DNA of 64,000 bases from Chryseobacterium gleum (GTDB taxonomy: Bacteria > Bacteroidota > Bacteroidia > Flavobacteriales_C > GCA-002722245), in assembly GCA_945871895.1 (NCBI GenBank), contig CAMBXP010000003.1, forward strand, positions 1,160 to 65,159, written 5' to 3'. Positions 1,992 through 36,689 of this stretch are shown here, piece by piece. Each line of letters begins with the position of its first letter. Position 1 is the first letter of the stretch. The position numbers and the translations under genes were made by a program. Under the pieces are notes generated by a model. The model did not search any database and was not told where the DNA came from. It saw nothing but the letters and a program-made list of their open reading frames with translations.

Positions 1992-3344
1992 ATGAGCAAA
2001 CCATCTATTCCCAAAGGAACCCGCGATTTTTTACCAGCGCAAATGGTAAAAAGAAATTACTTGTTTGATACACTTAGAAGCATTTTTAAGAAATATGGTT
2101 ATTTGCCTATTGAGACGCCCGCAGTGGAGAATTTATCTACTTTGATGGGGAAATATGGGGAAGAAGGAGATAGATTGATTTTTAAAATTTTGAATTCGGG
2201 TGATTATTTAGGTGGAGTAGAAAACATCACACAACACACTTCAGGTTCTTTAACCAAACATATTTCAGAGAAAGCTTTACGCTACGATTTAACCGTTCCC
2301 TTCGCACGTTTCGTAGTGCAAAATCAAAACGAATTGTCTTTTCCATTTAAGCGATTTCAAATACAACCAGTATGGCGTGCCGATCGTCCGCAAAAAGGTA
2401 GATACCGCGAATTTTTTCAATGCGATGTTGATGTTGTAGGAAGTGATTCGTTAGTGTATGAAATTGAATTCATTCAAATATTTTCTGAGGCATTAACTGC
2501 TTTAAAAGTACCCGGATTCCAAATCAAAATCAACAACAGAAAAATCTTGTCGGGAATTGCCGAAGTAGTTGGTGCTGCCGATAAAATAGTTGATATTACT
2601 GTGGCTATCGATAAGTTAGATAAAATTGGTTTAGAGAAAGTAAACGAAGAAATGCTAGAGAAAGGAGTGAGCAAAGAGGCGGTTGAAAAATTACAACCTA
2701 TCATTCAAATGAGTGGAAGTGCTGCAGAGAAATTTGTTACACTACGATCTGTTCTTTCTTCTTCTGAAATTGGTTTAAAAGGTATTGAAGAATTGGAGTT
2801 TATTTTCAAAAACAGTGAACTATTATCTGTACACTCTAATCTCTATTTAGATATTACTCTAGCTCGCGGATTAAACTATTACACCGGAGCGATTTTCGAA
2901 GTGAGTGCCCAAAACTTTAAAGGCAGTATTTGTGGTGGCGGAAGATACGACGATTTAACAGGAATTTTCGGCTTGAAAGGAATGAGTGGTGTTGGAATTT
3001 CTTTTGGTGCCGACCGTATTTTTGATGTGTTGGAAGAGAACAATTTATTTCCCGAAAACTTAGCACAAACTACCGATGTGTTGTTTGTGAATTTTGGCGA
3101 CGACGAAGCAATGTATTCTATGAAAGTAATGCAGCAATTGCGAGCCTCAGGAGTTAGTTGCGAGTTGTACCCATCGAACGCAAAGATGGGCAAACAAATG
3201 ACCTACGCTGATAACAAAGCTGTTCGTTTTGTGGCCATGATTGGTACCAATGAAATGAATGAAAATAAAGTGTCGTTGAAAAACATGACTACTGGAGAGC
3301 AGTCAATGCTAGCCATTGAAAACTTAATTTCCGTTCTCAAATAA
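1992..3344 (+). CDS. hisS: histidine--tRNA ligase
   Basis: Class II aaRS motif 2 ([32 protein letters not shown]), HisA-type motifs, and a C-terminal anticodon-binding domain. Confidence 0.95.
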
Positions 3345-3391
3345 TCAAGGTCCTAAATGTCATCACCGTCCCCAACGTCCTCTCAATAACT

Positions 3392-4255
3392 ATGAAAGTC
3401 TCAGGTTTCACAATAATTCGCAACGCCATCAAATACGACTTCCCAGCAGTGGAAGCCATCTCATCGGCTTTGCCCTTGTGTGATGAATTTGTAGTAGCTG
3501 TGGGCGATTGTAACGATGGAACTTTAGAGTTAATTCAATCCATAAATTCTCCCAAAATTAAGATTGTACGCACTGTTTGGGAAGAAGAGAAATACCGTTC
3601 AAAAAATTTAGAAATTTTAGCAGTAGAAACCAACAAAGCTTTCAAAGAGATTTCAAAAGATAGCGATTGGGCTTTTTATATTCAAAGCGATGAGGCCTTG
3701 CACGAACAGTATTTGGATAATACTTACAAAGCCATGCAACAGTGGAAAGACAACGAGAGGGTGGAAGGCTTGCTTTTCAACTACAAACATTTTTACGGAA
3801 GCTACGATTACGTTGGTGCTTCACCCCGTTGGTACCGCAAAGAAATTCGCATCATTCGCAATCGAGCCGATATTTTTTCTTACAAAGACGCACAGGGGTT
3901 TCGCAAGCTGCCCAACGATAAGTTGAGCGTTAAACAAATTGACGCTACAATGTATCATTATGGTTATGTGCGCGACCCAAAGAAGTTGGCAGAGAAGATG
4001 AATTTCAATCAGGCGATGCACAGCGACGACCCAAACAAGATGATGCCTTTTTTCAATTATGACGAAGTAGATGCGCTATTTAAATTCGATGGAACACATC
4101 CTAAAGTGATGCAAGAACGCATTGATAAAATGGGGTGGAAATTCGATTTCGATCCTTCTTTTAATAAACTTCGATTGAAAGATAAATTCAAATTGTTTAC
4201 CGAGAAGCTTACAGGGAAAAGATTTGGGGAATACAAAAACTACAAGGAGATCTAG
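3392..4255 (+). CDS. glycosyltransferase family 2-like protein
   Basis: N-terminal GT-A fold signature (FTIIRN...VVAVGDCNDGTLELI, DxD-like) and a DEA motif (IQSDEAL). Confidence 0.5.
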   Translation: MKVSGFTIIRNAIKYDFPAVEAISSALPLCDEFVVAVGDCNDGTLELIQSINSPKIKIVRTVWEEEKYRSKNLEILAVETNKAFKEISKDSDWAFYIQSDEALHEQYLDNTYKAMQQWKDNERVEGLLFNYKHFYGSYDYVGASPRWYRKEIRIIRNRADIFSYKDAQGFRKLPNDKLSVKQIDATMYHYGYVRDPKKLAEKMNFNQAMHSDDPNKMMPFFNYDEVDALFKFDGTHPKVMQERIDKMGWKFDFDPSFNKLRLKDKFKLFTEKLTGKRFGEYKNYKEI

Positions 4256-4258
4256 TTT

Positions 4259-17785: not shown

Positions 17786-18757
17786 ATGCATGAATCTTTA
17801 AAAATATCTATCATAACCCCGTCGTTCAATCAAGGACATTTTATAGAGGAGACAATACAGTCTGTTGTTCAGCAGAATTATGCCAATATAGAATATATTC
17901 TAATGGATGGCGGTAGCAAAGACAATACGGTTGATGTAATTAAGAGATACGACTCTCAAATTACTTACTGGGAAAGCAAAAAAGACAAAGGTCAGTCGGA
18001 TGCCATAAATAAAGGTTTGGCGAGAGCAACTGGTGATATTGTGGCCTGGTTGAATAGTGATGATATGTACACTGAAAATGCTCTTAAAAGAGTAGCTGCT
18101 ATTTTTACAAAATATCCAGAAGTAGATGTGGTATATGGAAACGTTTGGCAATGTTATCCCGATAAAACAGAAAAACATATCAACGTTAAATTCAATCCCA
18201 AGCATTTCCTTGCAGGTGTAAATATGCATCAACCTTCTGTTTTTTGGCGAAGAAGAGTGCATGATGAAGTGGGTTTTATTGATGAAAGTTTATATTATAC
18301 TATGGACTATGATTTGTGGTTAAGGTTGTTTTACAACTATAAATCCTACAAAACAGAGACTATCTTAAGTAAGTTTCGTTGTCATGAAGACGCAAAGACA
18401 AGTAAAAATCCTAAGGGGATTTATATGGATTATAGGAAGTGTATATCAAGATTTTTTCGTTCGGCAGGTTTCGATAAACATATTTCGGTTTTGCGCGCAC
18501 TTAAAATTTACGATTCCCATGAAACCACAAGCTATACTATTAAGCAAGAATTTACAGAAACAGCAAAGCAGCAAATTATTGATGAATATATTTTTAACTG
18601 CGGAGTGCAAGAGTATTCCTTTGGAAATGTATCGTCGGCAAATAAAATATTGAATTATTGTCTTACATCTTCTTATAAAAAACAAGCCCGCCGTTTCATG
18701 CTGAAAAATAATTTAGGAGTAAGAAAAATGCTTAATTTATTTAAGAAAGAAGCTTAG
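17786..18757 (+). CDS. glycosyltransferase family 2
   Basis: ISIITPSFNQGHFIEETIQSV...ILMDGGSKDNT...WLNSDDMY (DxD). Confidence 0.85.
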   Translation: MHESLKISIITPSFNQGHFIEETIQSVVQQNYANIEYILMDGGSKDNTVDVIKRYDSQITYWESKKDKGQSDAINKGLARATGDIVAWLNSDDMYTENALKRVAAIFTKYPEVDVVYGNVWQCYPDKTEKHINVKFNPKHFLAGVNMHQPSVFWRRRVHDEVGFIDESLYYTMDYDLWLRLFYNYKSYKTETILSKFRCHEDAKTSKNPKGIYMDYRKCISRFFRSAGFDKHISVLRALKIYDSHETTSYTIKQEFTETAKQQIIDEYIFNCGVQEYSFGNVSSANKILNYCLTSSYKKQARRFMLKNNLGVRKMLNLFKKEA

Positions 18758-18786: not shown

Positions 18787-20091
18787 TGTGAACTTGCAAC
18801 AAAAAATGGGACAAAAAGTTAAGCGACATTTTTAAGATTCATTAATTGTTCAAATTCTACGATTGTTAAATTACCTAAAGCCGAGTGTCGTCGGTTTCTG
18901 TTATACCAAGTTTCAATCCACTCAAAAATTGATATTGCAGCTTGTTCTCTGTCCATGTAACGATTTCTATACACCAACTCAGTTTTAATAGTTTTAAAGA
19001 AGCTTTCGGCCACAGCATTATCCCAATACCCGAAAACTTTGTTTTCTCCTCTTAATATCAAATCTTTTCTGCTCATGCTTCTTTCAACGCACTTGTAGCT
19101 TGCTAGCAACTTAGCAAAAACGTGACAAGCATACTGAACGCCTCTATCGGAATGAAAAATCAAAGCGGAGGATGGTGGCCGATTTTTCACAGCCATTCTC
19201 CAAGCCGCAATGCAGGTATTTTCCGCACGTAAATTACTGCTAAGCACCCAACCCACTGCTTTGCGATCGCACAGATCTGGGATGATAGTTAAATAAAGCC
19301 ACCCTTTACCAGTTCTTATGTAAGTAATATCTGCTACCCACACTTGTCCGCTGTTTTCGGCGCTGAAGTTTCTATCCAACTTGTTTTCTACTGCAGGATA
19401 TTTGTGTTTTGAATTGGTGGTAACCACAAACTTTTTAGAGCGAACAGCCTTGATGCCGTTCTCTTTTTCATCAATCTAGCTACCCGAGGTCTTGATACAT
19501 CAAGCCCTCGTTTTCTTAGCTCTTCAGTCATTCTCGGACTACCATAACTAGCCTTGCACTCCTGATGTATCCGTTGAATTTCGGCTACCAGCATACGGTT
19601 CTCACCATCGCGTTTTGAAGGAAGATAATTTCTCATTCTATAATATCCGCTTTTACTCACTTTTAAAACTTTACACATTTTCCCAACTGGAAATTCCCGC
19701 TGATGGTCTTTTATAAACTGGAAGATTTCCTGTCGCTCACGGAGAAGATGCTCACGGCCTTTTTTAATATGTCGCGCTCCATCTTTACATCGGCCAGCTC
19801 TCTTTTTAGTCTGGCCAATTCTTTTTGCTCCTCTGTAAGTTGTTTTTTACCATTGCCGCTAAATGCTAGCGAGGATTTAAATTTTGCTCATGTCGCCAGC
19901 GGTAGATGAATTTTAGCAATATGCCTAACTCTCGTGCAATCTCTTGAACACTGCCTCGAACTTCGCTTAATTCAACTGCTTTTTGTTTGAATTCTTTGCT
20001 GTAAATTTTTCTTTCTTTTTTCATTTTATTAAGGTATTGATTTGTTTCAATTTACCCTTAACTTAGTATCCAGTCAAATGTAGCAAGTCCA
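18787..20091 (-). mobile_element. IS3-family insertion sequence, degenerate (frameshifted orfA and orfB)
   Basis: Imperfect terminal inverted repeats: TGTGAACTTGCAACAAAAAATGGG (18787-18810) against the reverse complement of 20070-20093 (CATGGACTTGCTACATTTGACTGG). The length of about 1.3 kb fits IS3. Confidence 0.6.
18819..20024 (-). pseudogene. IS3-family transposase OrfAB, disrupted by two frameshifts beyond the programmed one
   Basis: OrfA MKKERKIYSKEFKQKAVELSE... hits a stop after EQNLNPR, then resumes in another frame ([48 protein letters not shown]). The slippery A_AAA_AAG is retained at 19758-19764. The OrfB DDE core (HSDRGVQY...) is broken by a frameshift near 19440-19470 (LMKK|ENGIKAVRSKKFVVTTNSK). 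Confidence 0.8.
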
Positions 20092-20253: not shown

Positions 20254-21165
20254 TTGATGAACAATAGCCTTTTCTTTACCATTGTAATTCCAACTTATAA
20301 TAGAGGTAAGTTAATTATTGATACTCTTGAAACAGTTCTAAATCAAAGTTATCGCAATTTTGAAATAATCATTGTCGACAATTATTCTACTGATAATACC
20401 GATGAAATTCTTAAACCCTATGTAGATAACGGTTTAATTCGCTATATTAAGCACGATAAGAATTACGAGAGAGCAAAATCGCGCAATACGGGTATGCAAA
20501 ACGCAAAAGGTGATTTTCTAACCTTGCTCGATTCAGATGATTTTATGTACGTTGATTGTTTGAAAGATGCTGCAGCATATGCTTTAAGTAATCCTGATAT
20601 AAAAGTTTTTCAAAACAAATACGAGTTGGTGAATGATAAGAAGGAAAAAATTTATTCTTACGCATTTCCATCTCTCGACAATCAATTTAAGGCTTTGTGT
20701 AGCGGTAATTTTATGGCATGTATTGGTGGTTTTTTGCACAAGGAAGTATATACTAAAATTCAGTTTGATACTACTCGAGAACTTACAGGATCTGAGGATT
20801 ATGAATATTGGTTTCGCGTTTTTGCTAAGTATAAAGTGGGTAGAATCGAGAAGGTGAATTCGGGTGTTTTACAGCATGAAGGCCGATCGGTGAACAATCA
20901 AGCCTTCGACTTAATGCTGCAACATAAAGATTATATCGTAGCGGTAATTCGCCGTCATTCAGCTGTAAAAGAAAAGTTTGAAAAGTATATTCCCCGTTTT
21001 GAGGCTTCCTTTTTGATTTATGCTGCAATTAAAGCTAATCAGTTTTTTTTGTTTAAAAGGGCTCTCTCTTTATTGCTGCTGGCTACTAAGGCGGATTTTA
21101 GTGTTTTGATGAGCAAACGATTTATTAGAGTATTTCAAATTGCTCTGTTTAGATTGAAAAGATAA
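20254..21165 (+). CDS. glycosyltransferase family 2
   Basis: FTIVIPTYNRGKLIIDTLETVLNQSY...IIVDNYSTDNT...LLDSDDFM (DxD). Confidence 0.85.
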   Translation: MMNNSLFFTIVIPTYNRGKLIIDTLETVLNQSYRNFEIIIVDNYSTDNTDEILKPYVDNGLIRYIKHDKNYERAKSRNTGMQNAKGDFLTLLDSDDFMYVDCLKDAAAYALSNPDIKVFQNKYELVNDKKEKIYSYAFPSLDNQFKALCSGNFMACIGGFLHKEVYTKIQFDTTRELTGSEDYEYWFRVFAKYKVGRIEKVNSGVLQHEGRSVNNQAFDLMLQHKDYIVAVIRRHSAVKEKFEKYIPRFEASFLIYAAIKANQFFLFKRALSLLLLATKADFSVLMSKRFIRVFQIALFRLKR

Positions 21166-21237: not shown

Positions 21238-22241
21238 ATGCTTATCCGCAAACATACCTAGAATTTTGAGCTAATGCAATTGTTGCTCTATCAAACAAGC
21301 GTTCTCCGAAGTTCCTTCTATTTAATTTGTAACAGAATTCGTCGAGATAAAGCTGTAGATATTTCCCTTTAATTTTATGGTATACGCCAAGCAGATTTCT
21401 TTTCACATTACTTATTGCAATATGAACCCATCGCAATGTTGTGGCAGTAGTTTCGTTGGTTGATTTTTCTGTAATATGGGTTTCTACATACTTGGCGATA
21501 TCGATATAACTCGTGCTTTTGTCGGAAAAAACAATGCTCTTTTCATCAAAACTTTTCTCTATCATTTCGTTTACGTTTTCAGATTTGTGAGTTGTCAAAA
21601 CCTTCATTTTAAAGTAGCGACATTGCTTACTGATTGTTCCTTTTTCTAAATCCTCTAAAGGTGTGGATTCAGCCATTACCGCTACGTTTTGTTGTTTTCT
21701 ACTTCCTTTGCCGCGCTTGTTTGGCGTTGATTGCGTTTTAGATGTTGCTGTCTCAATATAGGCTTCATCAAATTCAATCATACCTGTTAATGAATACCGA
21801 TCATCTCTGTTGCCCATCGATTCTCGAATTTTATGCATCACCCGCCAAACACTTTCATACCGACTGTGACCAAGCTGCGTTTGTAGATCCTTGGCTGATA
21901 TTCCTTTTTTAGTGAAGCTCATGAAGGCAATCGATAAATACCATTTGTGAAAAGGCAACTTTGAACTTTCCAATATTGTTACACTTCTTAAGGTTGTTCT
22001 AAATCCGCAATGAACACATTGCCACTGCCTTTTCTTGAGTTGCCATCTGTGTTCTTGCCTTTCACATTTCTTACAAATAACACCTTCTTGTTCTCTCGTT
22101 GTTTTGAAATCCAGTCGGCAACTTTGCTCATCTGGAAAGGTTTTTAGGAATTCTAAGATTTTCATATCGCTTTATTTTCTAACAAATAAAGCCCCTCACA
22201 CCGCAATGGATTTACGGTGAGGTATGTTTGCGGATAAGCAT
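21238..22241 (-). mobile_element. IS1595-family insertion sequence, apparently intact
   Basis: Perfect 22-bp terminal inverted repeats: ATGCTTATCCGCAAACATACCT (21238-21259) and AGGTATGTTTGCGGATAAGCAT (22220-22241). They bracket a single transposase ORF. Confidence 0.85.
21242..22165 (-). CDS. IS1595-family transposase
   Basis: N-terminal zinc ribbon (CKKCERQEHRW...WQCVHCGFRTT) and a DDE domain (FDEAYIE...). The gene lies wholly inside the IR-bounded element. Confidence 0.85.
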   Translation of the reverse strand: MKILEFLKTFPDEQSCRLDFKTTREQEGVICKKCERQEHRWQLKKRQWQCVHCGFRTTLRSVTILESSKLPFHKWYLSIAFMSFTKKGISAKDLQTQLGHSRYESVWRVMHKIRESMGNRDDRYSLTGMIEFDEAYIETATSKTQSTPNKRGKGSRKQQNVAVMAESTPLEDLEKGTISKQCRYFKMKVLTTHKSENVNEMIEKSFDEKSIVFSDKSTSYIDIAKYVETHITEKSTNETTATTLRWVHIAISNVKRNLLGVYHKIKGKYLQLYLDEFCYKLNRRNFGERLFDRATIALAQNSRYVCG

Positions 22242-26979: not shown

Positions 26980-29900
26980 CTATCTATTCACGATAACTTT
27001 AGAAACTACAAAATTATTATCATAATTCACTTTTACAAAATACATATCATTAGCAAAAGTATTTAAATCGATTTCTGTGTTGTAAGAAATATTTTTTTTC
27101 TCCATTAATAGCTTTCCAGTTTTATCATAAACCAAAATAAAATTAGGAATTTCCCTTTCGCTAATCAGCGTGAAAACCCCATTGCTTGGATTAGGAAAAA
27201 TACTTATTCTTGGAGAGATGTTATCATTTATAGAGCTTGGACTGCAAGGCAATTGATTTTGGTTAGTGTAAATTGTATTGAATACAGAGTTAGTTATTAT
27301 TGCGGGGTTAAAGTCGAAATATATTTCTGCTTTATTTCTAATTTGATTTCCCGTGTTTAAATTTTGTTTTGGTAGGATCTCATAAACCACATAGCCATGG
27401 CTCATTGGTTCATTATGAGTACTATCGATTAACATAATATTATCGAATGCAAATTTAATCACATTGCCTGCAAGAACTTGTGTATACATAGTATCGCTGC
27501 TTGAGAGAACATGAAGTGAGTTTAGGTCCAAGTTAGCATCAATCGAATCGAGCACTGAAATGTTAATGGCTTCTGCATTACCTGTATTTTGGAAATGAAC
27601 AGCATAGGTTAACTTTTGATCGGGTTTGATATATCCCTCTTCACATAAGCCGGAAGGATCTACCGAAATGTAATTTGGGTCGTAACCATTAATCACTGTG
27701 AAGATGTATTGGTGGAAATTATTTGTAGGATCAGTATCGCCAATATTTGGATCAATGAGGGTTCTAATTATAACGCTGTCTCCTATTTTAGCTAAATTAG
27801 ATGTGTGTACATCAATAACGGCGTTAAATGCCTTACCTTCAAATTGTAATTGAGAAAAATTCCAAATTAAAGTATCTCCAATAATATTATTAGGCGCAGG
27901 GAATGCTGTTTGATAATTCAACCACTTGGAAAGAATTAATTTAATTTTTCCGTCTTGAAGCACACAGCCTTCATTAATACCAGTAAGGAATATTTTGGCA
28001 GAAAATCCTTTTCTAAATGAACTTGCGATTAAAGCCGAGTTTAAATCGAAGTTATTCATTTCTTTTGGTTCATTAATTAATAGATAGCTAGTGTCAACAC
28101 AGCCTTTGCTGTCAGTTACTCTGGCGCCGTATATTCCTTTTACAGTGAAAGTTTTTGTTGAATCGCCAACATTACTGTTAAACCAAGTATAGTTGTATGG
28201 AGAATGACCTTGGTAAGCTTTAAGTTTTGCTTTACCCGACACTTGGCAATGAACATCGTCCACTTCCTTAAAAGTTAATGTTAAATTATTGCACGCAGAA
28301 GAGTTGGGATAGCCATTGATACGAGCAATTCGATTGCAACTCTTTCCATTGTAGGAGGTAAATTCTCCGGTGGTCATTAAATTTCCATCTTTCAAAACAA
28401 GCAATGAATTTACTACACTTAATCCAGAATAATGTAACATAAACCCCTCCTTGCTTTGGAAAGAGGTGTCAATTAATCCCTGACTATCTATACACACCAG
28501 TTTGCGTTTATGAATATTGTTAACTGTGGAAAAACTGCCTGCAAGATAAATTCTTCCATCGTCGTTTACATGTATTTGGGTTACGTTACTATCTATTGTT
28601 ACACTAAAAGTAGAGTCAGTAAGTCCACTCGGCATTAATCTAACCACATCATTTTTTGTTGAACTAATTAATATTCTATTTTGTTTGTCTATTTGTATAG
28701 CACCGATGGGTAAGTTTAATAAATTATTGTATTTAAAAGTGCTGTCAATGGTACCATCTTGATTTAACCGGAGTAAATACGAAACATTGTCTTGATTGAA
28801 TTTGGTGAAATCACCACCAACTAATAATTTGCCGTCTTTCTGCAGCTTTATACTTCTCACTACGCCGGAGGCTGCTGAACCAATTAAATAATTATTGTCA
28901 ATAGAGCCATTTGTATTTAAACGAGCTATTTTTCCATCAAAATTACCTTTGACAATGATTTTACCGTCAGTTTGAACTTCTAACCCATAAACACTTGCGA
29001 ATGCACCCGACATGCTTATTTTGTTCTCAAAGGTGCTGTCAGTGGTTCCATCGGGATTAAGTTTAGCTATATATTTTTGATTGGCTGATGAATTCACAGA
29101 AGTAAAAGCCCCACCTATAAGTATTTTATTGTCGGGTAATACTTTAACACAGGAAACTCCAATAACTTGAACATTGAAAGTGTGATCTAAATTTCCGTTC
29201 TTCAACAATCGAATACATGAAGGTATAGTGAGCTGGTTATAAAATCCGTAAGTTGTACTAACCAATACTTTTCCATCATTATGTTCTGCAATATCTGAAA
29301 TGGCCGAAGCTTTGTTAAAGCCGACAAAAATAAATGTAGTATCTGTGCTGCCATCTATATTCAATCTCGACAATCCCTGTATGTTTAAATTATTATATGT
29401 AAATCTATCTCCGCCAATATAAATTTTATTTAAGTGTTCCTGAACAACAAGTATTCTGGAAACATTTTTTGTATTAGTATCGAGCTTAAAAGTAGTATCT
29501 AGTTCTCCAAATTCATTTACACGAACTAATCCATTACAACTAATACCATTGTACTTTTTAAAAAGTCCACAGATATAAAAGTTTTTTCCATCGTTACTTC
29601 TCACATTATCCACATTGTTGTCAGTAACACCGACTTTAAATGAAGAAATAATATTGCCGCTGGTGTCGTACTTCGCAACAGAAGATGGATTTCCTACCAT
29701 GATTTCTCCATTTTGCAACAATAAAAAGTCAGATGGGATGTAACTAATCATTTCAATAGAATGAAATGTATTATCTATACTTCCATTAGGATTCAGCCTT
29801 ACTATTGTTGATCCTTGTCTTACCAATATTTTATCATCTTTTTGGATTTTAATATTAAAAATAGCATCCACTGGAATAAAAGGTATAAAAGAAGTATCAA

Positions 29901-30450
29901 TTGATCCATCTTGATTAAGCCTGCCAAAATATGGTGTATAAGTTTGGGAATCTTCGCCGCCTATTATGATTTTTCCATCTTTTTGTACCTCAGAAGACCA
30001 AATTTCCTTTTGTCCGGTTAAGCCGCTTTTAAATGTAGTGTCAAGTGAGCCATCAATATTAACTTTCGCAACATAGTAAGCATCTTGATTTCTGTATTGA
30101 GTAAATTTACCAACTATCAATATTTTCCCATCATTACACACAATTGTATTGTGGACCCAATCAGAAGCCATTCCATATAGTTTATTGAATTCCTTATCAA
30201 GAGTGCCATCTGCATTCAATTTTGCAATGTAGGGAATTCTAATATCGCTATATTCAGTAAAGGCTCCTGAAACAATAATTTCGCCGTTCGGTAGTGTATC
30301 TATATCATTAACTATATTATTCGCACCCCCGCCGAAACCTCGTTCTCTACTATTAGGATTAAATGTAGTATCCAAAGTACCAGGTTGTGCTAAACTAAAA
30401 GAGGAGAAAATGACAAATAGCGCGGCGAATAGATTTTTCAGAATTTGCAT
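26980..30450 (-). CDS. T9SS cargo protein: large secreted repeat protein with C-terminal Por secretion sorting domain
   Basis: Signal peptide. About 13 degenerate G(S/T)xDxxF beta-propeller-type repeats (GTLDTTF, GSLDTTF, GSIDTSF ...). C-terminal T9SS type-A sorting domain (...DMYFVKVNYDNNFVVSKVIVNR). Confidence 0.8.
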   Translation of the reverse strand: MQILKNLFAALFVIFSSFSLAQPGTLDTTFNPNSRERGFGGGANNIVNDIDTLPNGEIIVSGAFTEYSDIRIPYIAKLNADGTLDKEFNKLYGMASDWVHNTIVCNDGKILIVGKFTQYRNQDAYYVAKVNIDGSLDTTFKSGLTGQKEIWSSEVQKDGKIIIGGEDSQTYTPYFGRLNQDGSIDTSFIPFIPVDAIFNIKIQKDDKILVRQGSTIVRLNPNGSIDNTFHSIEMISYIPSDFLLLQNGEIMVGNPSSVAKYDTSGNIISSFKVGVTDNNVDNVRSNDGKNFYICGLFKKYNGISCNGLVRVNEFGELDTTFKLDTNTKNVSRILVVQEHLNKIYIGGDRFTYNNLNIQGLSRLNIDGSTDTTFIFVGFNKASAISDIAEHNDGKVLVSTTYGFYNQLTIPSCIRLLKNGNLDHTFNVQVIGVSCVKVLPDNKILIGGAFTSVNSSANQKYIAKLNPDGTTDSTFENKISMSGAFASVYGLEVQTDGKIIVKGNFDGKIARLNTNGSIDNNYLIGSAASGVVRSIKLQKDGKLLVGGDFTKFNQDNVSYLLRLNQDGTIDSTFKYNNLLNLPIGAIQIDKQNRILISSTKNDVVRLMPSGLTDSTFSVTIDSNVTQIHVNDDGRIYLAGSFSTVNNIHKRKLVCIDSQGLIDTSFQSKEGFMLHYSGLSVVNSLLVLKDGNLMTTGEFTSYNGKSCNRIARINGYPNSSACNNLTLTFKEVDDVHCQVSGKAKLKAYQGHSPYNYTWFNSNVGDSTKTFTVKGIYGARVTDSKGCVDTSYLLINEPKEMNNFDLNSALIASSFRKGFSAKIFLTGINEGCVLQDGKIKLILSKWLNYQTAFPAPNNIIGDTLIWNFSQLQFEGKAFNAVIDVHTSNLAKIGDSVIIRTLIDPNIGDTDPTNNFHQYIFTVINGYDPNYISVDPSGLCEEGYIKPDQKLTYAVHFQNTGNAEAINISVLDSIDANLDLNSLHVLSSSDTMYTQVLAGNVIKFAFDNIMLIDSTHNEPMSHGYVVYEILPKQNLNTGNQIRNKAEIYFDFNPAIITNSVFNTIYTNQNQLPCSPSSINDNISPRISIFPNPSNGVFTLISEREIPNFILVYDKTGKLLMEKKNISYNTEIDLNTFANDMYFVKVNYDNNFVVSKVIVNR

Positions 30451-30563
30451 GTTTCAGTTATTTTGAGAGAGTTTCGAAGATATGGAATTTTTCTATGTAG
30501 AGAAAACTGTTTACTTTTTGTAAATTGCACAAGTGGTATTAAAAAAATAGAGACCAATACTTT

Positions 30564-31019
30564 ATGCAATCCAAAGCATCAACAGTAGAAGAATATTTAA
30601 AGCTCTTACCCGAAGACAGAATTGAGATTATCACTTCTCTCCGAAAAATCATCCTAAAGAATTTACCTAAAGGTTTTGAAGAATGTATGAATTACGGCAT
30701 GATTGGTTATGTCGTTCCTTTGTCTTCTTATCCCGCTGGATATCATTGCGATCCCAAGCAGCCGCTTCCTTTTATGAATTTGGCTTCGCAAAAAAATCAT
30801 ATTGCCATTTATCACATGGATTTGTATGCCAATCAGGACTTGATGACGTGGTTTCAGCAAGAGTGGAGTAAGCATTCAAAGAAGAAGTTAGATATAGGGA
30901 AAAGCTGCATCCGATTTAAAAAGGCAGAAGATATTCCTTTGGCATTAATCGCTGAATTGTGCTCTAAGGTGAGTCCGAAAGAATGGATCAGTCAATACGA
31001 ATCGGATTTTAAGAAGTAG
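30564..31019 (+). CDS. DUF1801 domain protein
   Basis: Matches the YdhG/DUF1801-like family (EEYLKLLPEDRIEIITSLRKIILKNLP). Confidence 0.55.
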   Translation: MQSKASTVEEYLKLLPEDRIEIITSLRKIILKNLPKGFEECMNYGMIGYVVPLSSYPAGYHCDPKQPLPFMNLASQKNHIAIYHMDLYANQDLMTWFQQEWSKHSKKKLDIGKSCIRFKKAEDIPLALIAELCSKVSPKEWISQYESDFKK

Positions 31020-31022
31020 ACT

Positions 31023-31289
31023 TTATTTCTTGAATTGAGCATGTAGTGAGTTGAAATACTCGTCGCTAACATTCAATTCAATTTTTTTAAACTGACTCGT
31101 CAACCCTTTTTCAATCACAATATCGCTTTTTCTCACTTTCAATTCTTTTGAAAGAAATTTAATCAAGTACTCATTTGCTGCTCCATCAATAGGTTTTTCA
31201 CGAATCTTAATAATCCATTGATTGTTTTCATCAATGCTTATTTCATCTTTAAATGAACCGGGCTTAACTTTTACTTGGATGATTGGCAT
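31023..31289 (-). CDS. DUF167 (YggU) family protein
   Basis: IDGAANEYLIKFLSKELKVRKSDIVIEKGLTSQFKKIEL aligns with the YggU consensus ([39 protein letters not shown]). Confidence 0.7.
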   Translation of the reverse strand: MPIIQVKVKPGSFKDEISIDENNQWIIKIREKPIDGAANEYLIKFLSKELKVRKSDIVIEKGLTSQFKKIELNVSDEYFNSLHAQFKK

Positions 31290-31345
31290 GGGTTAAAAAT
31301 AACCATTTCTTTTTTCGTAGATTTAACCTGCTTTAATTATTCATC

Positions 31346-31912
31346 ATGAATTTGACTCATCCCAAACTGGTTAAACTATTGCAAAAGGCATATTCTGCTG
31401 AAAAAGCAGCTGCTTTTGCCTACATAGGTCATGCTGGTTCGGTGAAAGATAAAACACAAAAAGCACTCATCAAGCAAATTGAAATTGATGAATGGAATCA
31501 TCGAAGTGAAGTGCTTAAAATTATTAATCAGTATGGTATTCCTGTTTCAAGAGCTTACGAAATTCGATTTCATATTATTGGTAAAGTAATTTCTGCAAGT
31601 TGTTATGTGATTGGTTGGTTTATGCCTTATTATTTTGCCGGACGATTAGAAAGTGGTAACGTTTGCGAATATTTTATCATGATGCATTATTTCCATGAAA
31701 TTGGCATTAAAGATCACGACGAAGTGCTATATGAAATGGGAATGAAGGAAAAAGAACATGAAGTGTACTTTTTAGAGCAAATCAAAAACGATAAACTCTT
31801 GCCCTTTTTCGAGAAAATATTTTTCTGGGGGAAAAGAAAATCACTGAATGACGTTGATTTTGAAAACAAGTATTCTGTAGAGAAGTCAGAAATGTATTGT
31901 AAAAAGAAATAA
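31346..31912 (+). CDS. ferritin-like diiron-carboxylate protein (uncharacterised)
   Basis: Two E...ExxH motif pairs (EKAAAFAY...EIDEWNH; ESGNVCEY...EKEHEVYF). Reading this as a diiron site is an inference. Confidence 0.45.
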   Translation: MNLTHPKLVKLLQKAYSAEKAAAFAYIGHAGSVKDKTQKALIKQIEIDEWNHRSEVLKIINQYGIPVSRAYEIRFHIIGKVISASCYVIGWFMPYYFAGRLESGNVCEYFIMMHYFHEIGIKDHDEVLYEMGMKEKEHEVYFLEQIKNDKLLPFFEKIFFWGKRKSLNDVDFENKYSVEKSEMYCKKK

Positions 31913-31914
31913 CT

Positions 31915-32586
31915 ATGGAATTATCGTTATACGTTTATTTGGTTTTTATTGCAGCGACCTTAGCTACAGTGCTTTTTTTGTACAAAGCATCGGGTAAGTC
32001 GAAAGTTGTTTTAGGCGTTTCCCTAGCTTGGCTTTTGGTACAGGGAATTGTTTCTTATACAGGTTTTTATGAGAAAATAGATGGTTTTCCCCCGAGATTT
32101 TCTTTGTTGCTATTACCTCCCTTGGCATTGATTGCGTGGTTGTTTAATGCAGACAAAGGCAGGGTATTCATCTCAAAATTCGATAGCACTTGGCTAACCT
32201 ATCTTCATATAGTTCGAATTCCCGCTGAGATGGTTTTGTTTTGGCTTTTTGCAGCTGGCTATGTTCCAGAGCTAATGACTTTTGACGGAATTAATTTCGA
32301 TATACTTTCGGGCATCACTGCGCCTTTGGTTGCCTATTTCGGCATTAGAAAAAGTAAAATGAAAAAGAAGTACTTAATGCTGTGGAATTTCATTTGTTTG
32401 GGCTTACTGTTCAATATTGTTATCAATGCTATTCTTTCTGCACCTTCTATTTTTCAAGCGCAAGCCTATGATCAGCCCAACGTTGGAGTTTTCTATTTTC
32501 CTTTTGTTTGGCTGCCTTGTTTTATTGTGCCAGCGGTTTTATTTTCGCATTTGGTGTGTCTTAAAAAATTAAAAAGTACTTTTTGA
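31915..32586 (+). CDS. hypothetical integral membrane protein
   Basis: About 6 predicted hydrophobic helices. It starts 3 bp after the previous gene and overlaps the carbamoyltransferase start by 4 bp. Confidence 0.4.
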   Translation: MELSLYVYLVFIAATLATVLFLYKASGKSKVVLGVSLAWLLVQGIVSYTGFYEKIDGFPPRFSLLLLPPLALIAWLFNADKGRVFISKFDSTWLTYLHIVRIPAEMVLFWLFAAGYVPELMTFDGINFDILSGITAPLVAYFGIRKSKMKKKYLMLWNFICLGLLFNIVINAILSAPSIFQAQAYDQPNVGVFYFPFVWLPCFIVPAVLFSHLVCLKKLKSTF

Positions 32587-34448
32587 AAATACTTGGTATA
32601 TCTGCTTTTTATCATGATTCTGCTGCTGCTATAATATGCGATGGAGAAATTATAGCTGCTGCGCAAGAAGAGAGATTTACCAGAAAAAAACACGATGAAT
32701 CATTTCCCATAAATGCAGTGCAGTATTGCTTAAAAGAAGCTGGAATTACCATTGATGAACTTGAAGCCATTGTTTTTTACGATAAGCCTTTGCTCAAATT
32801 CGAGCGTTTGTTAGAGACTTATTATGGCTTTGCTCCAAAAGGTGTTTTGTCTTTCGTAACGTCTATCCCTGTTTGGATTAAAGACAAACTCTTTCTGAAG
32901 AAACTCATTAAAGATGAGCTCAAAAAAGTGGCTGATTATGACGCCAAAAAATTAAAAATTCTTTTTCCCGAGCATCATTTGTCGCATGCTGCCAGTGCTT
33001 TTTACCCTTCTTCTTTTGAAGAGGCCGCAATTCTTACGATTGATGGAGTAGGCGAATGGGCGACAGCTTCAATTTGTAAAGGAAGTGGCAAAAATATTAC
33101 AGTGCTAAAAGAATTGCATTTTCCTCATTCAATCGGTTTACTGTATTCTGCGTTCACTTATTTCTTAGGGTTTAAAGTGAATTCGGGCGAGTATAAGTTA
33201 ATGGGTTTAGCTCCTTACGGAAATACAAATTCTAAAGATATTCAGCGTTATGTCGATATTATAAAATCTCAATTAATTGATATTAAAGAAGATGGTTCGC
33301 TGTGGCTCAACCAAAAATATTTTTCCTACGCTACGGCGCTGCGTATGGTGCCCGATAGGAAATGGGAAAAGCTTTTTGGTTTCCCTAGAAGAAAAGCCGA
33401 ATCTCCTTTAGAGCAGCACCATTGCGATTTAGGTTTGGCGATACAATTGGTGACCGAAGAGTTAGTGATTAAAATGGCACAAGAAGCGAAGAAATTAACA
33501 GGTTGCGAAAATTTGTGCTTGGCGGGCGGTGTAGCTTTAAATTGTGTGGCCAATGGTAGATTACAGAAAGAAAATATTTTTAAAAATATATTTATTCAGC
33601 CTGCGGCTGGTGATGCTGGAGGCGCTATTGGTGCCGCTTTAGCAGCATACTATATTTATTACCAGCACGAAAGAAAAGTGAATGTTGCTTTGATGGATGG
33701 AATGAAAGGTTCTTATCTCGGACCATCATACAGCGACCAAGATGTAGAATTGATGGCAGATCAATATCAAGCCAAATTTCAGCGTTTTGAATCCTTTAAT
33801 GAATTAACAAAAGTAGTAGCAAATCATTTAGCCAACGCCAATGTGATTGGCTGGCATCAAGGAAGAATGGAATTCGGACCGCGTGCCCTAGGAAATCGCA
33901 GTATCATCGCCGACGCTCGCAATTCTGAGATGCAGAAAAAGCTGAATTTAAAAATAAAATATCGAGAAAGTTTTCGACCATTTGCGCCTTCTGTTTTAGC
34001 AGAAGATGTTTCTCAATACTTTGATTTTAAAGGTATTTCTCCCTACATGTTGTTGGTGCATCCTGTGAAAGAAAATCGTTTGAAACTTTTGCCTTTTAAT
34101 TATGCGGCTTTGCCTTTAAAGGATAAATTGTATCATTTGCGTTCTGATATTCCGGCGGTAACTCACATCGATTTTTCTGCGCGAATTCAAACTGTGCACA
34201 AGGAAACCAATCCGAAATATCATGCATTGATTTCAGCGTTTAAAGAAAAAACTGGTGATGGATTGCTAGTGAATACAAGCTTCAATGTTCGAGGAGAACC
34301 CATTGTTTGTACTCCTGAAGATGCTTATAAATGCTTGATGAGAACAGAAATGGATTACTTAGTTGTTGGGAATTATCTTTTCCCGAAACAAGAGCAACCT
34401 GAATGGAAAGAGAAAGACAATTGGAAAGATGAATATGTTTTAGATTAA
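32583..34448 (+). CDS. carbamoyltransferase (NodU/CmcH/SxtI family)
   Basis: MKILGISAFYHDSAAAIICDGEIIAAAQEERFTRKKHD, HHLSHAASAF and a C-terminal YrdC-like domain. Confidence 0.9.
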   Translation: MKILGISAFYHDSAAAIICDGEIIAAAQEERFTRKKHDESFPINAVQYCLKEAGITIDELEAIVFYDKPLLKFERLLETYYGFAPKGVLSFVTSIPVWIKDKLFLKKLIKDELKKVADYDAKKLKILFPEHHLSHAASAFYPSSFEEAAILTIDGVGEWATASICKGSGKNITVLKELHFPHSIGLLYSAFTYFLGFKVNSGEYKLMGLAPYGNTNSKDIQRYVDIIKSQLIDIKEDGSLWLNQKYFSYATALRMVPDRKWEKLFGFPRRKAESPLEQHHCDLGLAIQLVTEELVIKMAQEAKKLTGCENLCLAGGVALNCVANGRLQKENIFKNIFIQPAAGDAGGAIGAALAAYYIYYQHERKVNVALMDGMKGSYLGPSYSDQDVELMADQYQAKFQRFESFNELTKVVANHLANANVIGWHQGRMEFGPRALGNRSIIADARNSEMQKKLNLKIKYRESFRPFAPSVLAEDVSQYFDFKGISPYMLLVHPVKENRLKLLPFNYAALPLKDKLYHLRSDIPAVTHIDFSARIQTVHKETNPKYHALISAFKEKTGDGLLVNTSFNVRGEPIVCTPEDAYKCLMRTEMDYLVVGNYLFPKQEQPEWKEKDNWKDEYVLD

Positions 34449-34457
34449 ATTAGTCCC

Positions 34458-34607
34458 GTGGAATTTTTAAAAGACATTTGGAATTTTATTAAAGAGCGTA
34501 AGAAGTTTTGGTTGATGCCAGTAATTATTGTGATTGTGTTACTTGGTGTTTTGCTCGTTTTTGCTGCTTCTTCAGCTATCGGACCATTTATTTACCCTTT
34601 ATTTTAA
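34458..34607 (+). CDS. DUF5989 (SxtK-like) small membrane protein, GTG start
   Basis: VEFLKDIWNFIKERKKFWLMPVIIVIVLLGVLLVFAASSAIGPFIYPLF, 49 aa with a single transmembrane helix. It is below the ORF-track size cut-off, and its stop abuts the ATG at 34608. Confidence 0.6.
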   Translation: MEFLKDIWNFIKERKKFWLMPVIIVIVLLGVLLVFAASSAIGPFIYPLF

Positions 34608-34988
34608 ATGAAGCTAGGTTCTCATAAAATAACCCAAACTTTATTGGTGCTGGCCTTGGCTTCCATGGTTACTCATTTATTTGTATTGCGCGATATTAAT
34701 AGTTCTTTTTTCCGCTATGTCGCCATTATCCTCATTGTACTAGCTTTGTTTCCTCAATTCTTTCTCAGTGGATTTATTGCTAAGGCTTGGCTAAAATTCG
34801 GCGAAGCTATGAGCTGGGTGATGTCGAAAATTATTTTGACTTTGCTGTTTTATCTTTTTGTTTTCCCTATATCTTCACTCTATCGCTTATTCAGTAAGGA
34901 TTTGATGATGATAAAAAAGCGCAAAGACACTTATTTTAAAGAGCGAAATCATTTGTTTGAGAAAAAAGATATTGAAAACCCTTGGTAA
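34608..34988 (+). CDS. SxtJ-like membrane protein
   Basis: About 126 aa with 3 transmembrane helices. It occupies the conserved carbamoyltransferase-DUF5989-SxtJ position. Confidence 0.55.
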   Translation: MKLGSHKITQTLLVLALASMVTHLFVLRDINSSFFRYVAIILIVLALFPQFFLSGFIAKAWLKFGEAMSWVMSKIILTLLFYLFVFPISSLYRLFSKDLMMIKKRKDTYFKERNHLFEKKDIENPW

Positions 34989-34998
34989 AAATTAAGTT

Positions 34999-35436
34999 AT
35001 GAGAAATTTAGGAGTTAATTTATCACGCATAGGAGTAGGGATTGTACTCTTTTTCATTGGAATGTATAAGTTTACTAATGAGGGAGCTGAAGGCATCTTT
35101 GTGGATGTTGCTAATAGTCCGATTTTATCTTGGCTATATAAGCTAGGTTCTCATGCATTTGTTTCTGGATTGATTGGAAGTATGGAAATACTAATTGCTA
35201 TACTTATCTTCTTCAGTTTCAAAAATCAAAAGGCGGCCTTAATGGGCGGTATTCTGGGAAGCATCACTTTTTTAATTACACTAAGTTTTTACTTCACAAC
35301 ACCATCTGCCGATGGATTAATGGGACTGGCTCATTTTAGAATGGTAGCCGACTGGTGTCTCGCTCCCAACCATTTTATCTTGAAAGACATTGTGTTTTTA
35401 GGAGTTTGTCTTCAGTTGGCGGTAGAATATTGGTAA
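34999..35436 (+). CDS. DUF417 (YkgB-like) membrane protein
   Basis: About 4 transmembrane helices. The family assignment rests on length and hydrophobic pattern. Confidence 0.45.
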   Translation: MRNLGVNLSRIGVGIVLFFIGMYKFTNEGAEGIFVDVANSPILSWLYKLGSHAFVSGLIGSMEILIAILIFFSFKNQKAALMGGILGSITFLITLSFYFTTPSADGLMGLAHFRMVADWCLAPNHFILKDIVFLGVCLQLAVEYW

Positions 35437-35483
35437 AATAAAACTTTTCTCTTGGTATTTTTTGCTTCTATTAAATGAATTCA

Positions 35484-35491
35484 TATATTTG
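35484..35491 (+). promoter_or_regulatory. candidate Bacteroidota sigma-A -7 element (TAnnTTTG) upstream of rpsU
   Basis: TATATTTG lies ~24 nt before the rpsU ATG. Confidence 0.3.
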
Positions 35492-35514
35492 CTCCCCATT
35501 AGAAAATAAAAGAT

Positions 35515-35712
35515 ATGTTAGTAGTTCAAGTAAAAGAAGGCGACAACATCGAAAGAGCGTTGAAGAAATACAAAAGAAAGTTCGAAAAAACTAAGGTTTT
35601 GAAAGACTTAAGAAACAGACAAGCTTTTGAAAAACCATCTGTAACAAACAGAGAGGCTAATAAAAAAGCTGTTTACGTAGAGCAATTGAAAAGAAACTTG
35701 TCTGAAATTTAA
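35515..35712 (+). CDS. rpsU: 30S ribosomal protein S21
   Basis: MLVVQVKEGDNIERALKKYKRKFEKTKVLKDLRNRQAFEKPS. Confidence 0.9.
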   Translation: MLVVQVKEGDNIERALKKYKRKFEKTKVLKDLRNRQAFEKPSVTNREANKKAVYVEQLKRNLSEI

Positions 35713-35813
35713 TTTCAGCATTTACCTATAAATTTTAGTAGGAAGAGTTTTTTAAGGTATTTTAATCCTCAGTGATTCAAGTATTTTAAAAAATTCTTCC
35801 TATTTTTATTTAT

Positions 35814-36689
35814 ATGCCATTACAAGACTTTCTCCAATATCTAACTATTGAAAAGCGGTACTCTCCTCATACCGTTTTAGCTTATCAACATGACATAGAG
35901 ACTTATCTCGCCTATCTCAAAGATTCTTATGAGATAGAAGATTCTACCCAAGCCAATTCATTAATGGTGAGGGCATGGATAGTAGAGATGGTAGAAAAAG
36001 GCTTGCAGTCTAAATCGGTGCACCGAAAAATATCTTCTATAAAATCATTTTATAAGTTTTTAATGAAGCTGGGACAGCTAAAAGTGTCTCCTGCGCATGG
36101 CGTAGTGCTACCTAAATTGAAAAAACTGTTGCCAACTTTCGTGGAAGAAAGTAAAATGGATATTCTTTTAGATCAGGTAGATTTTGAAACTTCTGACTTT
36201 CATGGGAAGCGTGATAAATTAATTATAGAAATGCTTTATTTAACAGGAATGAGGCTTTCAGAGATTATCAATCTTAAAATATCTGATGTTGACTTGAGTG
36301 ATAATTCCATAAAAGTTTTAGGAAAAGGAAATAAAGAAAGAATAATTCCAATTAATTTTTCCACAGCAGCAACAATTAAAGATTACCTGGCGTATAGAGT
36401 AGCTAGTGAGGATGACTACTTGTTATTGACAGACAAAGGAGAGCAGTTGTACGAAAAGTTTGTGTATAGAACAGTGAATAAATTTCTTAGCATGGTTAGT
36501 ACACATCAAAAAAGGAGTCCGCACGTTTTGCGACACAGTTTTGCCACGCACATGCTGAATAATGGAGCTGATTTAAATGCGATAAAAGAATTACTCGGAC
36601 ACGCTAATCTTGCTGCAACCCAAGTGTATACTCATAATTCAATAGAGAAATTAAAAAAAGTGTATAACCAAGCTCATCCTAGAGCTTAA
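35814..36689 (+). CDS. tyrosine recombinase XerC/XerD-like (conserved rpsU-xer-hpf context)
   Basis: N-terminal SAM-like domain and catalytic R...HxxR...Y (LRHSFATHML...GHANLAATQVYTH). Confidence 0.85.
   Translation: MPLQDFLQYLTIEKRYSPHTVLAYQHDIETYLAYLKDSYEIEDSTQANSLMVRAWIVEMVEKGLQSKSVHRKISSIKSFYKFLMKLGQLKVSPAHGVVLPKLKKLLPTFVEESKMDILLDQVDFETSDFHGKRDKLIIEMLYLTGMRLSEIINLKISDVDLSDNSIKVLGKGNKERIIPINFSTAATIKDYLAYRVASEDDYLLLTDKGEQLYEKFVYRTVNKFLSMVSTHQKRSPHVLRHSFATHMLNNGADLNAIKELLGHANLAATQVYTHNSIEKLKKVYNQAHPRA

Follow-up and report, generated by a model that had tools for sequence, protein, structure and literature searches.

Carbamoyltransferases of the NodU/CmcH family share a chemistry in which carbamoyl phosphate is converted, through carbamate, to carbamoyl-AMP in a YrdC-like domain, the carbamoyl group being transferred to a hydroxyl in a Kae1-like domain (PMC6022934). 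Members such as TobZ, GdmN and NovN are stand-alone, soluble antibiotic-tailoring enzymes, and in the saxitoxin cluster the carbamoyltransferase gene sxtI is accompanied by sxtJ and sxtK. A relative of this saxitoxin trio is described here from a stretch of 64,000 nucleotides of Chryseobacterium gleum DNA (contig CAMBXP010000003.1; the whole stretch is hereafter called the window), in which a carbamoyltransferase (CT), a microprotein of the DUF5989 family and a small membrane protein of the SxtJ family are encoded within a run of six closely packed genes (Table 1). Judged by gene order in the loci compared, the six genes do not hang together as a conserved unit; only CT, DUF5989 and SxtJ stay linked across phyla. 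On balance, we favour the interpretation that these three proteins form an inner-membrane module for the O-carbamoylation of an envelope glycan or lipid.

As in the saxitoxin cluster, CT in the window has as its immediate neighbours the genes for an SxtJ-family protein and for another protein, about 50 amino acids long, and such an SxtI/SxtK/SxtJ-type trio, recognized in the original prediction for this run of genes, proved to be linked in about 75 of 81 related loci. GPRALG, the motif regarded as the catalytic site of SxtI, is common to SxtI and the window CT and, just as sxtL, encoding a GDSL/SGNH protein, follows sxtIJK, an SGNH protein is a frequent fourth neighbour of the module. The two systems differ in gene order (I-J-K as opposed to CT-DUF5989-SxtJ) and in setting, as the window module occupies a conserved position in the core chromosome and the window lacks the core sxt genes (the polyketide synthase (PKS)-like sxtA, the amidinotransferase gene sxtG, sxtB and others). 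The presumed likeness of SxtK to DUF5989 rests on size (sxtK is 165 bp) and on its place beside SxtJ.

The survey covered 80 loci from species-representative genomes, each anchored on a CT 62-90% identical to that of the window. These span Flavobacteriales, Chitinophagales, Cytophagales, Sphingobacteriales, Saprospiraceae, Marinilabiliales and Balneolales, and the sample also holds loci not of Bacteroidota type, from Vicinamibacterales (Acidobacteriota), Geobacteraceae and Desulfovibrionaceae; relatives of the CT were confirmed in at least 512 stretches of such genomes. When the six window proteins were searched against all six-frame open reading frames (ORFs) of the 80 loci and two more, CT was found in 81, DUF5989 in 74 and SxtJ in 75, as opposed to two for the DUF417 protein encoded by gene 6 and one each for the products of genes 1 and 2. 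The trio genes always lie on the same strand and are adjacent or nearly so, in the order CT-DUF5989-SxtJ in Bacteroidota and SxtJ-DUF5989-CT in Acidobacteriota, Desulfobacterota, Marinilabiliales and Alphaproteobacteria.

These counts bear on the proposal, made in the original prediction, that all six genes form a single functional operon in which the diiron protein encoded by gene 1 and the additional membrane proteins are parts of the carbamoylation system. In such a pathway, the diiron protein would hydroxylate a membrane substrate, the CT would carbamoylate the new hydroxyl and four membrane proteins would handle the substrate. The tight spacing, with a 4-nt overlap of gene 2 and CT, is in keeping with this, as is the predicted nature of the gene 1 product, which is ferritin-like with a diiron ligand set and belongs to a fold class that includes hydroxylases, e.g. 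COQ7 and MiaE. The same gene order also recurs in locus L003 (CT 87% identical) and, as far as its contig, cut upstream, reaches, in L009 (CT 90%). However, the arrangement is limited to these relatives with a CT at least 87% identical, and in the other 78 loci no gene 1, gene 2 or DUF417 was found within 6-8 kb of CT. In GCA_046074525.1, the assembly of a sister member of the Flavobacteriales, the two sets of genes are apart: contig 79 (L083) reads DUF167 (minus strand), gene 1, gene 2, DUF417 (the last two overlapping by 4 nt), rpsU, xerC, hpf and tuf, with the trio absent there, and contig 35 (L005) carries CT-DUF5989-SxtJ alone, between thrA and lepA. Elsewhere, homologues of gene 1 lie beside SDR, transketolase or DinB-family genes and those of gene 2 stand alone among unrelated genes. 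The split between L083 and L005, coupled with the rarity of the shared order, therefore identifies the six-gene run as a conserved trio inside a lineage-specific run of gene 1, gene 2 and DUF417, and makes a six-gene functional operon very improbable. The original prediction consequently holds for the trio and its family assignments and fails for the six-gene functional unit, synteny being lost for genes 1, 2 and 6, whose products accompany the trio only at a CT identity of 87-90%. These three genes are probably co-transcribed passengers with a function of their own, possibly one related to stress or redox, and the run should not be spread through annotation as a single operon-level functional unit.

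In about 20 loci, mostly from Chitinophagaceae and close relatives, the trio precedes rpsU by a few kb, with xerC and hpf as a rule next in line. In the window, the G+C content at third codon positions (GC3) of the trio is the same as that of its neighbours. Together with the rpsU-linked position, this indicates that the trio resides in an old chromosomal location and is not a recent import; recent horizontal acquisition was accordingly rejected for lack of support.

The CT matches the Pfam profiles Carbam_trans_N (E = 8.9e-96) and then Carbam_trans_C (1.7e-73), both over their full length, and finds GdmN (9e-89), NovN (2e-87) and TobZ (1.5e-79) among PDB sequences, with which it has two-domain architecture and active-site stretches in common. 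The stretches concerned, which are those for metal and nucleotide binding (HDSAA, HHxxH, GDAGG, GPRALG, FRPFAP and NTSFN), align identically or conservatively with GdmN, and a comparison of 82 members of the family puts their conservation at 95% or more. Unlike the three antibiotic-tailoring enzymes, the CT is coupled to two membrane proteins, its clade has conserved insertions relative to GdmN (e.g. residues ~80-105, IPVWIKDKLFLKKLI) and it is far more conserved across phyla. Indeed, at many positions identity over the 82 sequences reaches 95% or more, an unusual degree of conservation, and overall identity is 62-90% over Bacteroidota, Acidobacteriota and Desulfobacterota loci and 56-59% in Alphaproteobacteria. 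With these motifs kept, the protein is presumably an O-carbamoyltransferase with the chemistry of its family, an activity that is predicted from them. Assignment as NodU proper was rejected, the score with the NCBIfam equivalog model NF041651 being 147.7 bits against a cut-off of 1000, and the match to NCBIfam HypF reaches only 14 bits.

The second member of the trio matches DUF5989 over 49 of 49 profile positions (Pfam, 1.8e-23), and the N-terminus read from its GTG start, which had been proposed for this short gene from the outset, aligns with the family consensus. A basic N-terminus (KERKK) precedes a single hydrophobic span (approximately residues 18-37, with a hydropathy peak of 3.15 over residues 19-37) and the tail is uncharged, so that the positive-inside rule predicts the N-terminus inside and the C-terminus outside. 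Searches against PDB sequences returned only pilin-like transmembrane helices. The third member exceeds the SxtJ gathering score of 24.4 with 28.7 bits (Pfam, 2.4e-6), and all four family calls of the original prediction (CT, DUF5989, SxtJ and DUF417) lie above curated Pfam thresholds. In SxtJ, three hydrophobic segments are accompanied by a basic C-terminal tail (residues 92-126, with 10 K/R) that ends in ENPW; the only invariant residues of the protein are W61, L77 and P87. The module had also been described as easily under-annotated, which no longer applies to the family names, as RefSeq now includes a 'DUF5989 family protein' and an 'SxtJ family membrane protein'. It does apply to gene starts: 133 of 150 DUF5989 database representatives exceed 60 amino acids and match the family mostly at the C-terminal end, which suggests upstream starts that were mis-called. 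Cluster representatives of this family may be biased towards long members.

Beyond the trio itself, the most frequent fourth partner is an SGNH/GDSL protein of ~390 amino acids with an N-terminal membrane anchor, found in 41 loci; of the 59 loci whose flanks extend for at least 3 kb to either side, 34 have it. The gene for it follows SxtJ, precedes CT or stands between CT and DUF5989. Niastella and Daejeonella are among the carriers of all four genes. Its GxS, G, ND and DxxH blocks are conserved, leaving the catalytic set intact, and it is predicted to be a membrane-anchored enzyme that faces the periplasm. On pSymB of Sinorhizobium meliloti 1021 (at about 482-486 kb), the order is SGNH (minus strand), SxtJ-like, DUF5989 and CT, the last 56% identical to that of the window; the 143-residue SxtJ-like protein scores 36 bits with a profile built from 77 sequences and gave no match in a pairwise BLASTP comparison with window SxtJ. 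Just upstream of the SGNH gene and trio at this locus (L090, pSymB 477580-493409) are genes for a histidine kinase and a LuxR-type response regulator (ORFs 2134-3960 and 3849-4601), at which the PLSDB record is unannotated. In strain Ak57, an AT3-SGNH acyltransferase (L091, 1802-3817) is encoded upstream of the response regulator, in the position corresponding to that of strain 1021. Leisingera plasmid NZ_CP083559.1 (L092) carries SxtJ, DUF5989, CT, SGNH/GDSL, a second protein with a CT C-terminal domain, YjbH and YjbF. The second protein (3216-4790), annotated with the carbamoyltransferase C-terminal domain only, is encoded between SGNH and the yjbH/yjbF-like exopolysaccharide genes.

Some loci depart from this composition. 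Among the Saprospiraceae without DUF5989, SGNH lies beside CT in L002 and L072, and L020 has neither partner; SxtJ is displaced by 3.5 kb in L002, and none was found in L020 or L072. L036, L044 and L051 form a separate clade in which the CT ends in KFKMD and SxtJ follows directly, leaving no room for DUF5989.

A number of surveyed loci place the trio near genes for envelope glycans. A Wzz/GNVR tyrosine kinase and Bac_transf are encoded nearby in L078, a Wzy_C-like protein (below threshold) in L075 and PMT_2-like proteins with multiple transmembrane (multi-TM) segments in L002 and L066, and GT2, UbiA and epimerases are also found among the neighbours. These neighbourhoods (Wzz-type kinase, Bac_transf, GT2, PMT_2-like, MBOAT and YjbFH) fit the earlier guess of a membrane glycan or lipid as acceptor. 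Because the informative neighbours are envelope-glycan genes, and given the very high conservation across phyla, an envelope acceptor is the reading we prefer. By the chemistry of the family, the CT's C-terminal YrdC-like domain would form carbamoyl-AMP from carbamoyl phosphate and ATP, and its N-terminal Kae1-like domain would pass the carbamoyl group to a hydroxyl. SxtJ and DUF5989 would keep the CT at the inner membrane, SxtJ probably by means of its conserved basic cytoplasmic tail. The acceptor would be a membrane-associated envelope component, most likely a polysaccharide, lipopolysaccharide (LPS) or a lipid-linked glycan, and not a secondary metabolite.

A precedent for a carbamoylated envelope glycan is the core heptose of Pseudomonas, for which WapO is the putative enzyme (PMC8005017). 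By its description, WapO (PA5005, putative LPS core heptose 7-O-carbamoyltransferase) resembles the proposed role of the CT, as a NodU/CmcH-family member to which an envelope-glycan substrate has been assigned (PMC8005017). It differs in belonging to a core-oligosaccharide cluster, in which the gene table gives glycosyltransferases and kinases as its neighbours and mentions neither an SxtJ nor a DUF5989 partner (PMC8005017), and WapO would act on the cytoplasmic face.

Alternatively, the trio could tailor a soluble small molecule (a metabolite, signal or osmolyte), the membrane proteins serving export, self-protection or localisation and the SGNH protein acting as a decarbamoylase, as has been proposed for SxtL. 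Such a role would accord with the only ones proposed for homologues, namely the carbamoylation of saxitoxin by SxtI/J/K and its decarbamoylation by SxtL, and all biochemically or structurally characterised relatives of the CT (GdmN, NovN, TobZ and others) act on natural products. Nevertheless, we regard it as improbable. Neither the window nor the surveyed loci hold a biosynthetic cluster; in the window, Pfam searches of the flanks and the ten largest other ORFs found no PKS, non-ribosomal peptide synthetase (NRPS), amidinotransferase or other sxt-type genes, in agreement with the original prediction, which had remarked on the lack of polyketide and amidinotransferase genes nearby. The informative neighbours are, instead, those of envelope glycans. 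In addition, CT sequences from different orders and phyla are 62-72% identical and the gene occupies a conserved core-genome position, unlike natural-product tailoring enzymes, which argues for one widely shared acceptor.

Several points weigh against an envelope acceptor. Glycan-type neighbours occur in 36 of 81 loci, a count that was compared with no background rate and is therefore suggestive only. The literature search brought up no carbamoylated component of the envelope in Bacteroidota. For SxtJ and SxtK of the homologous trio, published accounts still go no further than 'hypothesised to work in conjunction' with SxtI, and the sole proposed function, in saxitoxin synthesis, concerns a soluble small molecule.

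A more specific role for DUF5989 is suggested by its C-terminus. In the Dlt and PatAB systems, the invariant, extracytoplasmic tyrosine of an FXYXXF motif takes an acyl group and hands it to the serine of a membrane-anchored SGNH protein (DltD or PatB), which modifies the polymer (PMC12148441). The motif is found at the C-terminus of MBOATs such as PatA, that of NgPatA being FIYANF (PMC12148441), and DltX of L. plantarum is a single-pass protein of 49 residues (PMC13653941). A survey of DUF5989 in the window and 75 loci (76 copies) and in 150 database representatives showed that F-[IV]-Y-x-x-F-COOH ends all 76 of the former, the window copy reading FIYPLF, and 127 of the latter, most of the others having the appearance of read-through calls. 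The window holds this ending in DUF5989 alone among 433 ORFs, and outside DUF5989 it occurs in four of 8,476 ORFs in the same loci, two of which are genuine MBOATs. The DUF5989 ending thus matches the extracytoplasmic 'acyl shuttle' hexapeptide FXYXXF of DltX and PatA, a likeness that is newly noted here; the literature search returned no papers for DUF5989 and none joining the acyl-shuttle motif with carbamoyl transfer. The two MBOATs, both from Bacteroidota metagenome-assembled genomes, end in FIYFQF and lie within 2 kb of the trio (L006, 11585-13003, plus strand; L007, 11478-12911, minus strand), L006 having the order epimerase-SGNH-CT-DUF5989-SxtJ-391aa-MBOAT-DegT-AsnB. In these two loci, the only ones with an MBOAT gene among the neighbours of the module, the carbamoyl genes thus lie next to an acyl-shuttle system of the classical kind. 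Each of these MBOAT genes adjoins a gene of unassigned family, of 391 codons in L006 and with a weak DUF1574 match in L007.

Where the SGNH protein is present, the carbamoyl group might accordingly be relayed from the CT on to Tyr46 of DUF5989 on the outer side of the membrane, from there to the SGNH serine and finally to the polymer, in the manner of Dlt and PatAB. CT, SxtJ, DUF5989 and SGNH would then constitute a trans-envelope carbamoylation machine, with Tyr46 as the loaded residue and the periplasmic SGNH protein as the enzyme that modifies an envelope polymer. Within the envelope reading this is the specific route that we prefer, although taken by itself we consider it rather unlikely. 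Aryl carbamates readily carbamoylate serine hydrolases, and the resulting carbamoyl-serine turns over slowly, so the relay is chemically plausible and not obviously efficient. DUF5989 has size, predicted topology, terminal motif and type of partner in common with DltX; the CT, like DltA, would be an adenylate-forming cytoplasmic activating enzyme, and both the module and the Dlt/PatAB systems occur in envelope-polymer gene neighbourhoods. The resemblance of DUF5989 to DltX is one of motif and architecture, and no homology is claimed. In contrast to Dlt and PatAB, which move an acyl group and employ an MBOAT or AT3 transferase (and a carrier protein), the module would move carbamoyl and has neither of these.

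The relay has several weak points. No profile-level homology to DltX was detected, a permissive Pfam scan (E up to 10) of DUF5989 returning only its own family and a chance Wzz match, and FXYXXF may therefore be convergent or serve as a docking element only. The active site of the CT is expected in the cytoplasm, across the membrane from the predicted periplasmic position of Tyr46. The module includes neither an MBOAT nor an AT3 protein, and the small SxtJ has no conserved catalytic-type residue and no conserved His, which leaves the membrane-crossing step unexplained. The 64-kb window itself contains no SGNH or MBOAT gene. Furthermore, L002, L036, L044 and L051 keep CT and SxtJ without DUF5989, and no FXYXXF ending fused to a larger protein was found in the loci that lack DUF5989 (L002, L020, L030, L036, L044, L051 and L072).

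Loading of Tyr46 need not be followed by transfer. DUF5989, or another protein, could be the end acceptor of a stable regulatory or structural carbamoylation, comparable to that of HypE by HypF, which also combines YrdC-like and Kae1-like domains, forms carbamoyl-AMP and acts on the last residue of a small partner protein (PMC6022934). That DUF5989 always stops exactly at the conserved hexapeptide is consistent with this idea. However, the positive-inside rule predicts that the membrane separates its tail from the enzyme, the SGNH partner that is so often present, with an intact catalytic set, suggests onward transfer or removal, and some lineages keep CT and SxtJ in the absence of DUF5989. 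HypF also differs from the CT in its reversed domain order and its extra ACP and Zn-finger domains, and HypE in being a soluble partner modified on a cysteine, whereas DUF5989 is a membrane protein with a tyrosine. There is accordingly little likelihood that carbamoylation ends on DUF5989 or another protein.

There is nothing exceptional about the window copy, which belongs to a widespread module that is already catalogued in databases. DUF5989 comprises 2,997 representatives (50% identity clusters) at E<=1e-3 and, as the number of CT relatives also indicates, the module is common. If the acceptor is an envelope glycan, as we favour, O-carbamoylation would rank with acetylation, D-alanylation and succinylation among the general modifications of the cell surface, with a bearing on phage, antimicrobial and immune recognition. 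The FXYXXF ending provides a first concrete and falsifiable hypothesis for proteins of the SxtK and SxtJ types. Were the relay to be true, it would extend the tyrosine acyl-shuttle mechanism, itself established only recently, beyond MBOAT and AT3 systems, as the first tyrosine shuttle to operate without either and the first to move a non-acyl group. It would also assign a role to SxtJ and SxtK and point to a widespread, overlooked O-carbamoyl decoration of the envelope in diderm bacteria. The presence of the module on pSymB of S. meliloti 1021, for which the literature found deals only with ornithine carbamoyltransferase, makes the idea testable in a genetically tractable model organism.

The products of the passenger genes are less readily placed. 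With gene 1, Pfam gives only sub-threshold matches to Ferritin_2 and COQ7 (E about 0.06-0.09). Its predicted model is a four-helix bundle of the ferritin-like kind in which E, ExxH, E and ExxH make up the ligand set, which supports the ferritin-like diiron fold proposed in the original prediction. The family has 3,872 matches and no Pfam model; an aligned set is 71-81% identical, one member being labelled Methylacidiphilales, and is characterized by an invariant hydrophobic stretch (SCYVIGWFMPYYFAG), invariant C86, C107 and C185 and a disordered C-terminal tail. Neighbours of these relatives include SDR, DinB-family, DJ-1/PfpI and glutathione peroxidase genes, which hints at a role in stress or redox. 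Gene 2 belongs to a family of 1,445 homologues, Bacteroidota membrane proteins none of which has a Pfam domain, with many invariant Pro, Trp and Asn residues. Its AlphaFold model (pLDDT 88, pTM 0.87) found no meaningful fold match in the PDB by Foldseek, the best TM-score being <=0.31. Gene 6 matches Pfam DUF417 (3.3e-27) and scores 65 bits against a cut-off of 275 with NCBIfam RclC, which places it in the wider DUF417 family only and not with the RclC equivalog.

Table 1. Features of the gene run and its downstream border (window positions)
Feature	Position	Strand	Start and length	Description
Gene 1	31346-31912	+	ATG, 188 aa	Predicted ferritin-like diiron-carboxylate four-helix-bundle protein; outside the conserved module
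Gene 2	31915-32586	+	ATG, 223 aa	Helical membrane protein; outside the conserved module
CT	32583-34448	+	TTG, 621 aa	Carbamoyltransferase, NodU/CmcH (TobZ/GdmN) type; core gene 1
DUF5989	34458-34607	+	GTG, 49 aa	Microprotein; core gene 2
FXYXXF hexapeptide	34587-34604	+		F44-I-Y46-P-L-F49, C-terminus of DUF5989; motif match
SxtJ	34608-34988	+	ATG, 126 aa	SxtJ-family small polytopic membrane protein; core gene 3
Gene 6 (DUF417)	34999-35436	+	ATG, 145 aa	RclC/YkgB-like membrane protein; outside the conserved module
TATATTTG	35484-35491	+		Fits the -7 promoter consensus of Bacteroidota, TAnnTTTG; the rpsU ATG follows after 24 nt

In the ORF listing, the six tightly packed plus-strand ORFs (31346-35436) fall exactly where the original prediction had drawn them, with successive spacings of +2, -4, +9, 0 and +10 nt, the overlap being that of the TTG start of CT with the stop of gene 2. 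From this spacing, and with no terminator-like sites between the genes, we infer that all six are probably co-transcribed; across 30400-36000, terminator-like sites are at chance level and sigma-70 promoter-like sites are fewer than in shuffled sequence, both scans being uninformative. The consensus TAnnTTTG is rarer than chance across the window, and its sole useful match, TATATTTG, likely marks the downstream boundary of the run before rpsU. The 56 nt that precede gene 1 (31290-31345) contain no exact copy of it, the nearest being TAGATTTA at 31318-31325. Rfam identifies five tRNAs only in the whole window, with no leader and no riboswitch.

Downstream of the run lie rpsU, xerC, hpf, tRNAs and tuf (named by Pfam on the orthologous genes of L083) and, further on, rpoB and rpoC (Pfam). 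Upstream is a glycan-type stretch consisting of kdsA-like, GT4, methyltransferase, two GT2 (17786-18757 and 20254-21165), nucleotidyltransferase and AsnB genes, broken by two insertion sequence (IS) elements. Also upstream are a large repeat ORF, a DUF1801 gene and a divergent DUF167 gene. The Pfam families detected in the flanks and the ten largest other ORFs include kdsA-like, GT4/GT2, AsnB, LptD, rpoB, rpoC, HisRS and similar; the parts of the window scanned with Pfam yielded no nod genes. A search of the 64 kb for an SGNH partner, multi-TM neighbours, UbiA or MBOAT turned up only generic GT2.

The elements that break the glycosyltransferase stretch at 15-27 kb are an rve-type integrase (18819-19427, minus strand) and an IS1595-family transposase (21242-22165, minus strand), and gaps without long ORFs lie near 19.4-20.2 kb and 22.2-23.3 kb. 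The large repeat ORF (26980-30450, minus strand) encodes 1,156 amino acids with many DGS(I/L)D..F repeats and looks like a gene for a large secreted repeat protein with a C-terminal domain of the type IX secretion system (T9SS) type, i.e. T9SS cargo. Finally, the trio has a similar A/T-rich string at either junction, AAAAAATTAAAAAG where gene 2 ends (32560-32586) and AAAAATTAAG before DUF417 (34986-34998), and the single corresponding junction of L083, where the trio is absent, reads ATCATTAAGAAATG; these strings could be the trace of an insertion or excision, or merely low-complexity sequence.

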